From NCBI GenBank assembly GCA_949288955.1, contig CASEMS010000015.1, positions 4,269-68,268 on the forward strand: a DNA stretch of 64,000 bases, in the 5' to 3' direction. A program made the translations under genes and the position numbers. The notes under the pieces are model-generated. The model had not been told where the DNA came from. It saw only the letters and a program-made list of their open reading frames with translations, and made no database searches. How positions within the stretch are numbered: the stretch's first letter is position 1; every line of letters begins with the position of its first letter. The DNA comes from an uncultured Lentisphaeraceae bacterium (GTDB lineage Bacteria > Verrucomicrobiota > Kiritimatiellia > RFP12 > DVOR01). Positions 42,181-45,409 of this stretch are shown piece after piece.

Positions 42181-43356
42181 ATGAGACAGGGTTTCTTCGA
42201 TAAGTTCGTGGAGCGGCTCGACCGCCTCGACGCGCCGGTGGTGGAGGCGCACATCGCGGAGTTGGCGCGGGAGCGGGGCTTCCTGGAGACGCTCTTCCAA
42301 TCCATCGATGAGGGATTGCTGGTGGTGGGGGACGGTCTGCGTCTGCTCTATGCGAACCACGCGGCGGAGCGGATGGTGGGCTTCTCGGCGGAGGAACGGC
42401 AGGGGAAGTCTTTGGCGCGCCACCTGCGGGATTGGGGGGTGGAGGGATTGCTGCGTCAGCAGATGGGCGACTGGGAGCGAGTGGAAACGCGGGAGGTGGA
42501 GCTGGCCTACCCCGAACGCCGGGTGGTGCGCTTCTACGCGCGCCCCGTGGAGCTGGAGGGACGGACGGAACTGTTGCTGATTCTGCGGGATGTAACGCGC
42601 GAGCGGGCGGCGGAGGAAAGCGCGTTGGCCGATGAGCGCCTGACGGCGGTGAAGACCCTCGCGGCGGGGGTGGCCCATGAGATCGGCAACCCTCTGAATG
42701 CATTGACCATCCACCTGCAATTGCTGACGCGCGAGCTGCGGGGGGTCGGGGACGAATCGCTGCGGGAGAGCCTCGGGGGGCTGGCGGCGGTGGCGGAGCG
42801 TGAGGTGGCGCGGTTGGACGGCATCCTGCGGCGTTTCCTGGCGGCCATCCGGCCGGCCAAGCCGAACCTCACGCGGGGCAACGTCCGCGACGTGCTGGAT
42901 GCGACGCTCCGCCTTTTGGAGCCGGATTTGGCGCAGCGGGAGATCGCGTTGGCGCGGACAATGCCAAAGGCCGTGCCGGAGGTCTTCCTGGACGCCCAGC
43001 AGCTGGAGCAGGTCTTCTTCAACCTCATCAAGAACGCCATGGACGCGGTCTCGGACGGTGGGCGCATCGGCGTGACGGTAACGACGGACGACGCCTGGGT
43101 GAACGTCTCGGTGCTGGACAACGGCGCGGGCATCCCCGCCCCCATGTTGGGACGCATCTTCGACCCCTATGTAACCACCAAGGAAAAGGGCAACGGTCTG
43201 GGGCTGATGATCGTGCGCCGCATCGTCCAAGCGCACGGCGGCACCATCACCTGCGCCAGCCACGAGGGCGAGGGCACGTGCTTCACGGTGAGCCTGCCGC
43301 GCGCGGAGCGGCGGGTGCGGGCCTTGGGCGAGGGCAGGCAGGAGGCGACGCGATGA
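42181..43356 (+). CDS. Soluble PAS-domain sensor histidine kinase (NtrB-like)
   Basis: PAS domain, HisKA H-box (AAGVAHEIGNPLNAL) and HATPase_c (N, G1 DNGAGIP, G2 GNGLGL). No TM segments. Start at ATG 42181. Confidence 0.85.
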   Translation: MRQGFFDKFVERLDRLDAPVVEAHIAELARERGFLETLFQSIDEGLLVVGDGLRLLYANHAAERMVGFSAEERQGKSLARHLRDWGVEGLLRQQMGDWERVETREVELAYPERRVVRFYARPVELEGRTELLLILRDVTRERAAEESALADERLTAVKTLAAGVAHEIGNPLNALTIHLQLLTRELRGVGDESLRESLGGLAAVAEREVARLDGILRRFLAAIRPAKPNLTRGNVRDVLDATLRLLEPDLAQREIALARTMPKAVPEVFLDAQQLEQVFFNLIKNAMDAVSDGGRIGVTVTTDDAWVNVSVLDNGAGIPAPMLGRIFDPYVTTKEKGNGLGLMIVRRIVQAHGGTITCASHEGEGTCFTVSLPRAERRVRALGEGRQEATR

Positions 43357-44702
43357 GCACGGTGCTGATCGTCGACGACGACAAGGCGACGCGCGAAGGC
43401 CTGGCCCTGGCGTTGCGCGGGGAGTACACGGCCCTGACGGCGGCGGACGCGGAGACCGCCCTGCGCGCGCTCACCACCCATGAGGTGGATCTGGTGCTGA
43501 CGGATCTGCGGATGCCGGGACGCGACGGCCTCTCCCTCCTGCGCGACATCATTGCCTCCCACCCCGGCCTGCCCGTCATCCTCCTCTCGGCCTACGGCTC
43601 CGTGGAGAGCGCCGTGGAGGCGATGCGCGACGGCGCCTACGACTTCCTCACCAAACCCATCAACCTCGACCATCTGGAGCTGGTGGTGCGCCGTGCCCTG
43701 CGCCAGAAGAACCTGGAGCGTCAGAACGCGCGCCTGCGCACACAGTTGGAGGGACGCTCCGCGCTCGACCGCCTCATCGGCTCCTCGGAGGCGATGTTGG
43801 CCGTGCGCGAGCGCATCGAGCAGGTGGCCCCCACCCCGGCCACCGTGCTCGTGCAGGGCCCCAGCGGCACGGGCAAGGAGTTGGTGGCGCGTGCCCTCCA
43901 TGCCCTCAGCCCGCGCGCCGGCAAGCCCTTCGTGGCCGTCCACTGCGCGGCCTTGGCGCCCTCGCTCCTGGAAAGCGAGCTCTTCGGCCACGTCAAGGGC
44001 GCCTACACGGGGGCGGACGAGGACCGCAAGGGACGCTTCGAGATCGCCGACGGCGGCACGCTCTTCCTGGACGAGATCTCGGAGATCGACCTGGCCACCC
44101 AGGTGAAGCTCCTGCGTGTGTTGGAGACGCGCACGGTCGAGCCCGTCGGCTCCGCGCGCCCCGTGCCGGTGGACATCCGTCTGGTGGCCGCCACCAACCG
44201 CAACCTCCGCGCATGGGTGGACGCCGGGAAGTTCCGCGAGGATCTCTTCTTCCGCCTGAACGTGGTGGACATCAACCTACCCCCCCTGCGCGAGCGCCAA
44301 GGCGACCTGCCATTGCTCTGCGATGCCTTCGTGCGCGAGTACAACCCCCAGTTGGGCCGCAGCATCCTCGGCATCGAGCCCGACGCGATGGCCGCCCTCG
44401 CCGCCTACCCCTGGCCCGGCAACGTCCGCGAGCTCCGCAACGTCGTCGAGCGCATGATGGTGCTGGCCAAGGGCGACCGCCTCACCCTCGCCGACGTGCC
44501 CGAGGAGGTGCGCCTCGGCGCCGCCGCCCAGCCCGCCCCCGTCGGCGCCCCACCCCCCGCCGAACCCGAGGAAGCCGCCCTCATCCGCCGCGCCCTCGCC
44601 GAGACCAACGGCAACCGCACCGCCGCCTCGAAGCGCCTGGGCATCCCCCTGCGCACCCTCTACCGCCGAATCAAAGCCTATGGGCTGGAGGACGCCAAAT
44701 GA
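43353..44702 (+). CDS. Sigma-54-dependent response regulator (NtrC family) with variant GAYTGA motif
   Basis: REC domain (DDD...D, TDLRMPG), AAA+ domain (GPSGTGKE) with GAYTGA in place of GAFTGA, and C-terminal Fis HTH. The start overlaps the kinase stop as ATGA. Confidence 0.9.
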   Translation: MSTVLIVDDDKATREGLALALRGEYTALTAADAETALRALTTHEVDLVLTDLRMPGRDGLSLLRDIIASHPGLPVILLSAYGSVESAVEAMRDGAYDFLTKPINLDHLELVVRRALRQKNLERQNARLRTQLEGRSALDRLIGSSEAMLAVRERIEQVAPTPATVLVQGPSGTGKELVARALHALSPRAGKPFVAVHCAALAPSLLESELFGHVKGAYTGADEDRKGRFEIADGGTLFLDEISEIDLATQVKLLRVLETRTVEPVGSARPVPVDIRLVAATNRNLRAWVDAGKFREDLFFRLNVVDINLPPLRERQGDLPLLCDAFVREYNPQLGRSILGIEPDAMAALAAYPWPGNVRELRNVVERMMVLAKGDRLTLADVPEEVRLGAAAQPAPVGAPPPAEPEEAALIRRALAETNGNRTAASKRLGIPLRTLYRRIKAYGLEDAK

Positions 44703-45409
44703 GACTCCCCACCCTGCTCGCCCTCCTGCCCGCCTTGGCGGTCGCCGCCGCCGACCTCCCCGCGGGCTTCTTCCCCCCGCCCCCCGACGCCCCCGCCCAA
44801 GGCGAGGGCCGTTGCCTCACCTGCGAAGGCCGCGGCACCGTCGAGAGTGCCTTCAGCGACACCAGCATCGGGGAGTTCGGCGACACTGTCCGCCCCCCCT
44901 GCCCCACCTGCAAAGGCCGCGGGCGCTGCATCCGCCCCCTCACCGTCGCCGAGCGCGAACGCCTCCAACGCCAGACCCTCAACGCCTACGAACGCGAGCA
45001 GCGCGCCGCCCGCCGCACCCCCATCGGCGCCGGCTTCATGGATCTCGACGCCGCCAAGGCCCTCACGCCCGAGGCCCACGCCGCACTCGCCGCCCGCTTC
45101 CCGAAACGTTGCAAGACCTGCCTGGGCCTCGGCCAGGATGCCTGCCGCAAATGCAAAGGCCGCGGCAAGGTCGAACGCCGCGAGCGTGTCGAGGGCGAGG
45201 ACGGCGAGACCCGCACCAAGACCATCGACGTCCCCTGCGCCGAATGCGGCGCCTCCGGCGCCGTCCCCTGCCGCCGCTGCGACGGCTTCGGCCTCGCCAA
45301 GGTCTGCACCCGCTGCGATGGCCTCGGGACGACGGAGGTCGAGGCCAAACGCGACACCCCCGCCCACACCGAGCTCTGCCGCTCCTGCAAAGGTGATGGC
45401 CGACGCTGA
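44699..45409 (+). CDS. Secreted protein with eight DnaJ-type CxxCxGxG zinc-finger motifs
   Basis: Signal peptide MRLPTLLALLPALAVAAA. Eight CxxCxGxG motifs counted directly: CLTCEGRG, CPTCKGRG, CKTCLGLG, CRKCKGRG, CAECGASG, CRRCDGFG, CTRCDGLG, CRSCKGDG. The ATG overlaps the regulator stop as ATGA. Confidence 0.7.
   Translation: MRLPTLLALLPALAVAAADLPAGFFPPPPDAPAQGEGRCLTCEGRGTVESAFSDTSIGEFGDTVRPPCPTCKGRGRCIRPLTVAERERLQRQTLNAYEREQRAARRTPIGAGFMDLDAAKALTPEAHAALAARFPKRCKTCLGLGQDACRKCKGRGKVERRERVEGEDGETRTKTIDVPCAECGASGAVPCRRCDGFGLAKVCTRCDGLGTTEVEAKRDTPAHTELCRSCKGDGRR

Follow-up and report, generated by a model that had tools for sequence, protein, structure and literature searches.

Organization of the locus

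A predicted operon of three genes, coding for a two-component system of the sigma-54 type and a cysteine-rich (Cys-rich), probably exported protein with zinc-finger motifs of the DnaJ type, was analyzed in a stretch of 64,000 nucleotides (nt) from an uncultured Lentisphaeraceae bacterium (GCA_949288955.1, contig CASEMS010000015.1, positions 4,269-68,268, forward strand), referred to below as the window. The window has a GC content of about 68% and is chromosomal in appearance. The listing of open reading frames (ORFs) gave three plus-strand ORFs at 42181-45409, each in a different frame, and the following features were located there.

42166-42174, plus strand: extended -10 element TGtTATAAT, 6 nt before the kinase ATG at 42181, recognized by its conservation across loci
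42181-43356, plus strand: kinase gene (gene 1), 391 amino acids (aa)
43353-43356, plus strand: ATGA stop/start overlap of the kinase and regulator genes, read from the sequence
43353-44702, plus strand: regulator gene (gene 2), 449 aa
44699-44702, plus strand: ATGA stop/start overlap of the regulator and Cys-rich genes, read from the sequence
44699-45409, plus strand: Cys-rich protein gene (gene 3), 236 aa
44699-44761, plus strand: predicted Sec-type signal peptide, aa 1 to about 21 (MRLPTLLALLPALAVAAA, with D as the next residue), from hydropathy and the -3/-1 rule

The starts of the second and third genes are each preceded, 7 nt upstream, by a Shine-Dalgarno (SD) sequence, AGGAGG at 43340-43345 for the regulator and GGAGG at 44687-44691 for the Cys-rich protein. 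The 4-nt overlap of the kinase and regulator genes recurs in 11 related loci (designated by L numbers); in L014 these genes overlap or abut, the exact base not being resolved. An overlap of 4 nt between the regulator and Cys-rich genes was present in 11 of the 12 related loci examined, and the exceptions at this junction are a 5-nt gap in L013, a longer overlap in L014 and a gap of 7-8 nt in L018. The ATGA overlaps, taken together with the upstream SD sequences, strongly support the prediction that translation of cistrons 2 and 3 is coupled to that of the preceding cistron. An earlier note on this DNA had described a three-gene unit with ATGA overlaps at the last two junctions. Both overlaps were found, and the unit is real; it is kept in those related loci that offer enough DNA. 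The term "translationally fused", also used there, was the wrong one, because the genes overlap in three different frames and are predicted to be translationally coupled.

Kinase and regulator

Pfam assigned three domains to the kinase, PAS (aa 34-142, approximately), HisKA (158-220) and HATPase_c (271-375). The protein has no hydrophobic segment (maximum Kyte-Doolittle value of a 19-mer, 0.95) and is therefore soluble and cytoplasmic. The best partial matches in NCBIfam were AtoS (231 bits, cutoff 646), ZraS (188 bits, cutoff 479) and NR(II) (123 bits, cutoff 240), every one under its cutoff; the alignment with NR(II) runs from end to end. The closest solved kinase core was that of ZraS (9jfj, E 2e-40).

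The regulator was matched by Response_reg (96 bits), Sigma54_activat (233 bits), AAA_lid_14 and HTH_8 (49 bits), and its sigma-54 contact loop reads GAYTGA (at nt 43998). It thus has the receiver, the AAA+ domain with a GAFTGA-type loop and the Fis-type helix-turn-helix that define sigma-54 activators of the NtrC family. Its scores were 429.6 bits for NtrC (cutoff 558.6), 457.7 bits for AtoC (cutoff 714) and 395.9 bits for ZraR (cutoff 760), and the solved relatives were NtrC1/NtrC4, LuxO, NtrX and ZraR. The soluble PAS kinase and the NtrC-type regulator named in the earlier note were both recovered in this way; they are ordinary members of the NtrC-type class and lie below every equivalog cutoff tried (NtrB/C, AtoS/C, ZraS/R).

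Motifs, fold and predicted export of the Cys-rich protein

The third protein starts with MRLPTLLALLPALAVAAADLP, has a mass of about 23 kDa and contains 17 Cys. CxxC pairs are located at C39, C68, C138, C149, C180, C191, C203 and C227, and all except the fifth (CAECGASG, a CxxCGxxG) are exact CxxCxGxG motifs. Of the eight CxxCxGxG motifs that had been claimed, the eight CxxC pairs therefore stand while only seven motifs are exact, and four Cys4 sites are still plausible. Elsewhere in the window the CxxCxGxG motif is absent from all ORFs of more than 100 codons. The DnaJ Cys-rich domain PF00684 was matched in three stretches with 47.6 bits (cutoff 32.7) and scored above the gathering cutoff in 34/34 members of the family, so that the motif set is not a product of chance. 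At E<=0.1 the Pfam matches were to zinc-finger families only; PF25436 (BSD2_CRD) gave 14 bits, below its cutoff of 27.

In an alignment of the 34 members the cysteines of motifs 2-8 were present in all and those of motif 1 in almost all, and most of the knuckle glycines were kept. A helical insert at aa 83-133 (approximately) is specific to the family. The alignment also showed a kept helical stretch, ER..LQR...YEREQ...P.GAGFM...L.P...A.LA.R.PK, and an invariant GRR at the C terminus. The spacing of the motifs and the secondary structure point to two four-motif modules of the DnaJ type, a canonical one at the C terminus (aa 180-234) and an N-terminal one (motifs 1-4) that is split by the helical insert, and the protein is predicted to hold four Cys4 metal sites. 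The AF2 model was confident, with low pLDDT at residues 1-20. Foldseek gave local matches of this model to DnaJA2 and DnaJ, and the structural relatives were the zinc-finger domains of DnaJ and BSD2 only. The family profile had no match among PDB sequences.

The repeated CxxCxGxG knuckles are the feature shared with the Cys-rich domain of DnaJ (Hsp40), in which two Zn are bound by each set of four motifs. The J domain, the G/F region and the C-terminal domains for peptide binding that make up the rest of DnaJ are all missing from the third protein, which in turn has twice the number of knuckles (eight against four), a helical insert of about 50 aa and a predicted signal peptide. A DnaJ fragment was rejected on these grounds and because TIGR02349 scored 27.3 bits against a cutoff of 377.2, PF00684 being the only DnaJ model matched. 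The DnaJ-type motifs described in the earlier note are thus present in a protein that is not a DnaJ fragment.

The N terminus carries one basic residue, an uncharged hydrophobic core of 16 residues and AxA-type sites. These n-, h- and c-region features and -3/-1 sites recur in 32/34 family members; the sequence itself is unconserved. Of the two members that appear to lack them, one probably has a mis-called start and the other is an artefact of the crude rule applied. The export proposed earlier is thus upheld as a prediction. A lipoprotein and a Tat substrate were also considered and rejected, as there is no conserved lipobox and no consistent twin-arginine motif.

Distribution and conservation of the module

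A search of about 5.8 billion proteins yielded only 12 close relatives of the Cys-rich protein, none of them named. An exhaustive profile search of 1.84 billion representatives gave about 25 clusters (50% identity) at E<1e-30, with lengths of 230-310 aa and full-length matches. Eight CxxC pairs are present in all of these, and a predicted signal peptide in nearly all. The gene was found in the genomes of 10 GTDB species, in a single copy each and always linked to the module, and all ten are metagenome-assembled genomes labelled Kiritimatiellaeota, Lentisphaeraceae or Candidatus Spyradenecus (placed in Lentisphaerota). A scan of metagenomes with a narrower family alignment contributed one useful locus, L014.

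In all 13 informative loci the regulator gene lies directly upstream of the Cys-rich gene. All three genes are present in 12 of them (L001, L003-L008 and L010-L014), and L009 has the regulator and Cys-rich genes only. The flanking genes differ between loci. Identity to the proteins of the window was 70-92% for the kinase, 72-94% for the regulator and 32-76% for the Cys-rich protein. On the contig of L018, which has 46% GC, a regulator of 73% identity is found directly upstream of a Cys-rich protein of 36% identity, and the adjacency thus holds at 32-36% identity of the Cys-rich protein and across a difference of 22 points in GC content. As it holds in every locus with enough DNA, including the kinase-less L009, the regulator and Cys-rich genes are considered to be the conserved core. 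These data strongly support a lineage-specific, vertically conserved operon of gut-associated bacteria of the Planctomycetes-Verrucomicrobia-Chlamydiae (PVC) group that are labelled Lentisphaeraceae or Kiritimatiellaeota.

The homology and neighbourhood analysis thus places the Cys-rich protein in an unnamed, lineage-restricted family that it founds, in which a domain of known type occurs in an architecture and at a location that are new. Genetically the family is firmly joined to a highly conserved sigma-54 regulator, in a branch of the PVC bacteria that has been little studied and is for the most part uncultured. For an exported bacterial protein of this type and for this gene combination no curated family, source name, solved relative or paper was found, and a literature search on exported or periplasmic CxxCxGxG proteins and on sigma-54 in Kiritimatiellae returned nothing relevant. 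The statement in the earlier note that this is not a described system is in line with these searches.

A second tier of relatives, about 370-400 aa long, has the same core behind an extra zinc ribbon and a helical region. In L016 (2566-5750) and L017 (2573-5049) the gene of such a relative (405 aa, with signal peptide, zinc ribbon, helical region and Cys-rich core) shares an ATGA overlap with that of a Hanks-type Ser/Thr kinase, which has one transmembrane segment (aa 316-342, approximately) and a large extracytoplasmic domain. The long relatives in L019 and L020 follow a Ham1/RdgB gene instead. A general link of the second tier to Ser/Thr kinases was rejected, because there was a single instance of it and two further loci of this tier did not show it.

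Promoter and transcription

There is no SD sequence before the kinase ATG, and a scan for consensus promoters found no -35/-10 pair upstream of the gene. The arrangement TATA(A/C)T-N6-ATG was present in 12/12 close loci, and the rest of the upstream DNA could not be aligned. Several loci have no in-frame start upstream of the kinase ATG. An N-terminally extended kinase starting at GTG 42157 or ATG 42163 was rejected, as these starts are not conserved among the related loci. In L009, where the kinase gene is missing, TATAAT-N6-ATG stands directly before the regulator gene (in the region 8200-8600 of that locus). Tandem repeats of GGACCCTTTAGGGTTTGGCCCC precede this element in L009, and the regulator and Cys-rich genes still overlap there. 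In the more distant L014 the kinase gene has a normal SD sequence and no TATA(A/C)T-N6 box, and leaderless initiation therefore appears to be a trait of the closer clade.

Because the box is placed exactly 6 nt before the ATG in 12/12 close loci, the data support a leaderless kinase mRNA with a predicted start at or next to A42181. The leaderless start of the first gene assumed in the earlier note is consistent with this conserved arrangement. The TATAAT-N6-ATG element offers a clean comparative case for leaderless translation in the Lentisphaerota/Kiritimatiellota group.

No internal promoter and no plus-strand terminator was detected within the operon. Two features lie downstream of it.

45421-45444, minus strand: GC-rich hairpin with a T-run behind it, the terminator of the GNAT gene
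45514-45873, minus strand: GNAT gene, convergent with the operon

The hairpin is the intrinsic terminator of the GNAT gene and the only one available to stop the operon on the plus strand. From this arrangement we infer that the three genes are co-transcribed from the extended -10, sigma-70-type promoter. No credible sigma-54 site was found before the operon or before the Cys-rich gene; matches within 2 mismatches were intragenic and no more numerous than expected by chance. The Cys-rich protein had been suggested to be an output of the sigma-54 regulator, and this suggestion is not borne out. As its gene has no sigma-54 promoter of its own and is predicted to ride on the regulator's own sigma-70-type leaderless transcript, the protein would be co-produced with the regulator and not induced by it. 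The redox or metal sensing and the envelope stress that were suggested along with this output are guesses.

Comparison with known systems

Stand-alone zinc-finger proteins of the DnaJ type are plastid assembly chaperones and thiol-disulfide factors. Those used here as an analogy for activity are BSD2 (PDB 6EKB), lumenal PSA2 and ZnJ6 (PMC7865324), which differ from the present protein in being eukaryotic, in having one four-motif module and in not being linked to a sigma-54 regulator. PSA2 is a DnaJ-like zinc-finger protein with disulfide-isomerase activity and was reported to be absent from prokaryotes (PMC11449065). The lumen in which it resides is topologically equivalent to the periplasm, and by analogy PSA2 may serve as a precedent for an exported DnaJ-like zinc finger.

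Among bacterial systems, ZraPSR of the envelope stress response of Enterobacteria likewise pairs a two-component system of the sigma-54 type with an accessory protein that is exported and binds zinc (export and zinc binding being predictions in the present case), and ZraS is the closest solved kinase core and ZraR among the closest solved regulators. However, ZraP is a member of the CpxP/Spy family and not rich in Cys, and ZraS, a kinase of the membrane, has its sensor in the periplasm (PMC6737893). Furthermore, zraP is divergent and sigma-54-dependent, whereas the third gene of the present operon is predicted to be co-transcribed from a sigma-70-type promoter and the kinase is soluble. The Cys-rich protein gave no match to CpxP/Spy/ZraP (LTxxQ) and its gene has no sigma-54 site upstream, so that the module does not belong to ZraPSR.

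The QseE-QseG-QseF system (GlrK-YfhG-GlrR) resembles the module in that a single operon comprises the genes for a kinase, a sigma-54 activator and an accessory protein that is exported (PMC6075780, PMC12691602, PMC8745638). The difference lies in QseG. This lipoprotein of the outer membrane has no sequence relationship to the Cys-rich protein, its gene stands between those of the kinase and the regulator, and its target is the periplasmic domain of a kinase located in the membrane. NtrB/NtrC share the architecture of a soluble PAS kinase and a REC-AAA+-HTH_8 activator, and AtoS/AtoC were the best partial matches in NCBIfam. In both cases the scores were below the cutoffs, neither glnA nor ato genes are linked to the module, and a counterpart of the extra exported protein is lacking. 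Sigma-54 two-component operons with an exported accessory protein are thus known (QseEGF, ZraPSR), but none has the present protein, gene order or soluble kinase. CtcB and CtcC of Chlamydia are also a soluble PAS kinase and a sigma-54 activator, and the kinase and regulator of the module may be orthologous to this pair across the PVC group.

Proposed function

The explanation that we tentatively prefer, with rather less than even confidence, is that of a conserved leaderless operon which supplies an exported zinc-thiolate partner or accessory of a sigma-54 pathway. The kinase would sense a cytoplasmic cue by its PAS domain, and the NtrC-family sigma-54 activator would be its regulator. The Cys-rich protein would be a partner or accessory of this pathway, and not its induced output, because it is predicted to be made together with the regulator and not from a sigma-54 promoter. 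It may act as an extracytoplasmic zinc-thiolate holdase or as a thiol-disulfide-active factor for envelope proteins; we infer from the analogy with BSD2, PSA2 and ZnJ6 that an activity of this kind is the most likely one. A functional link would then exist between the state or the clients of the protein and the regulon that the sigma-54 activator controls. Such a link, if true, would represent a new kind of third component in sigma-54 two-component signalling and would offer a way into the study of envelope proteostasis or redox control in the Lentisphaerota/Kiritimatiellota of the gut. On present evidence the module is a well-defined unknown that is topologically puzzling, and it has no bearing on a long-standing open question.

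Several points weigh against this explanation. The kinase has no membrane or periplasmic domain and thus no direct route to a periplasmic protein, which leaves a direct signalling role unexplained. The metal content and export of the Cys-rich protein and the co-transcription of its gene are all predictions. Cys4 zinc sites are unusual in the oxidizing periplasm and rare there, and the cysteines could form disulfides instead. Evolution of the Cys-rich protein is about three times as fast as that of the kinase and regulator (identities of 32-76% against 70-94%), which fits an exported protein and equally a looser functional tie. Finally, adjacency that is kept within one clade can partly reflect shared descent.

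Alternatively, the exported protein could be an accessory third component comparable to QseG, ZraP or CpxP, which senses the envelope, metal or redox state and modulates the two-component system by a membrane relay. The tight conserved coupling to the regulator, which survives the loss of the kinase in L009, and the single-copy, always linked gene in the 10 GTDB genomes speak for it, as do the longer paralogous member in L016 and L017 that overlaps a transmembrane Hanks-type kinase and the precedents QseG-QseE (PMC6075780, PMC12691602) and ZraP-ZraSR (PMC6737893). However, the kinase of the operon has no transmembrane or periplasmic domain, no membrane protein is conserved beside the module in the related loci, and the Ser/Thr kinase link is a single case that two other second-tier loci do not share. 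This alternative is therefore considered doubtful.

Sigma-54 sites and nitrogen genes of the window

Two perfect TGGCAC-N5-TTGCA sites are present in the window. They are located in the following region.

5410-6966, plus strand: second sigma-54 activator gene, with GAF, AAA+ (GAFTGA) and HTH_8 domains, adjoining gltB
6938-11326, minus strand: gltB, glutamate synthase large subunit
11351-11366, minus strand: sigma-54 site, 25 nt before gltB
12015-12030, plus strand: sigma-54 site, 35 nt before glnN
12066-14189, plus strand: glnN, type III glutamine synthetase

As these two perfect sites precede gltB and glnN, sigma-54 promoters are clearly used in this genome. The two-component system could then be the lineage's equivalent of NtrB/NtrC that drives both promoters, with the Cys-rich gene as an unrelated rider. 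The alignment of the soluble PAS kinase with NR(II) over its whole length and the 430 bits of the regulator on the NtrC model agree with such a role. The scores of both proteins are nevertheless below the NtrB/NtrC cutoffs (123 versus 240 and 430 versus 559 bits), AtoS/AtoC score higher, and no gln genes occur near the module in the other loci. Moreover, the GAF-type activator, which is 44% identical to the regulator of the operon, adjoins gltB and is the nearer candidate, and for this reason the gltB and glnN promoters cannot be assigned to the operon's regulator. A role as the nitrogen regulator is thus unlikely, and 5410-14189 looks like a nitrogen-assimilation locus under the GAF activator. 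The two activator genes have 72-78% nucleotide identity over their AAA+/lid regions (6058-6357 versus 43821-44120 and 6640-6690 versus 44403-44453); they are paralogues and not the result of a recent duplication.

A one-mismatch sigma-54-like site, TGGCGCGGAAGTTGCT, at 16161-16176 (minus strand) lies inside a plus-strand gene for the small subunit of carbamoyl-phosphate synthase and is probably spurious. In L005 (13294-13460) and L007 (13307-13460) a perfect sigma-54 promoter, TGGCACGCGAATTGCA, was found before clpB, 2.7 kb downstream of the module. Upstream of this promoter there are 5-6 TGGCAC repeats, including the palindrome TGGCACAGTGTGCCA, which likely form an activator-binding array. 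The clpB promoter was discarded as a clue to the regulon, as there was nothing similar in the window or in the other loci.

Remaining explanations

The Cys-rich gene could also be a passenger that owes no more to the operon than constitutive expression at a low level, without a functional tie to the regulator. This would agree with the much faster evolution of its product and with the lack of an obvious topological route from an exported protein to a cytoplasmic system. A mere passenger is rather improbable, however, as the adjacency was retained down to 32-36% identity, across the 22-point difference in GC content and after loss of the kinase, and the stop/start overlaps were kept in almost all loci.

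It is quite improbable that the cysteines serve as structural disulfides after export and that an envelope or secreted protein knotted by disulfides is made instead of a zinc-finger chaperone, a reading to which the predicted Sec-type signal, the number of 17 Cys and the rarity of periplasmic Cys4 zinc sites lend some weight. Highly improbable, finally, is a sensor of export failure, in which the precursor, normally translocated unfolded, would accumulate when Sec export or the envelope fails, fold around zinc in the cytoplasm, bind the regulator or kinase and switch the sigma-54 regulon. Such a sensor would amount to a partner switch resembling Psp, with a zinc-finger protein of the DnaJ type as its switching element, and, if true, would explain the paradoxical stoichiometric co-translation of an exported protein with a kinase and a regulator that are soluble.

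Other features of the window

A dispersed intergenic repeat resembling repetitive extragenic palindromic (REP) elements, with units of about 22 nt around the palindrome GGATCAGCCGCTGATCC, occurs at the following positions of the window.

244-313, intergenic: REP-like repeat
5283-5352, intergenic: REP-like repeat
11405-11824, intergenic: REP-like repeat
30062-30175, intergenic: REP-like repeat
41979-42070, intergenic: REP-like repeat
45982-46073, intergenic: REP-like repeat
46287-46345, intergenic: REP-like repeat
50737-50872, intergenic: REP-like repeat
54858-54949, intergenic: REP-like repeat

One cluster of this repeat is found about 100-200 nt upstream of the -10 box of the operon. Identity is 97% between the copies at 46003-46061 and 46287-46345, and the stretch that they flank recurs in inverted orientation near 11500-11600.

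A stretch of low GC content (54-60%) at 22177-28371 contains a type I restriction-modification system (HsdR, 22177-25098; HsdM, 26788-28371) and is probably a horizontally acquired island. The sole Rfam match of the window, DUF3800-VII RNA at 25052-25132 (plus strand), lies within this stretch.

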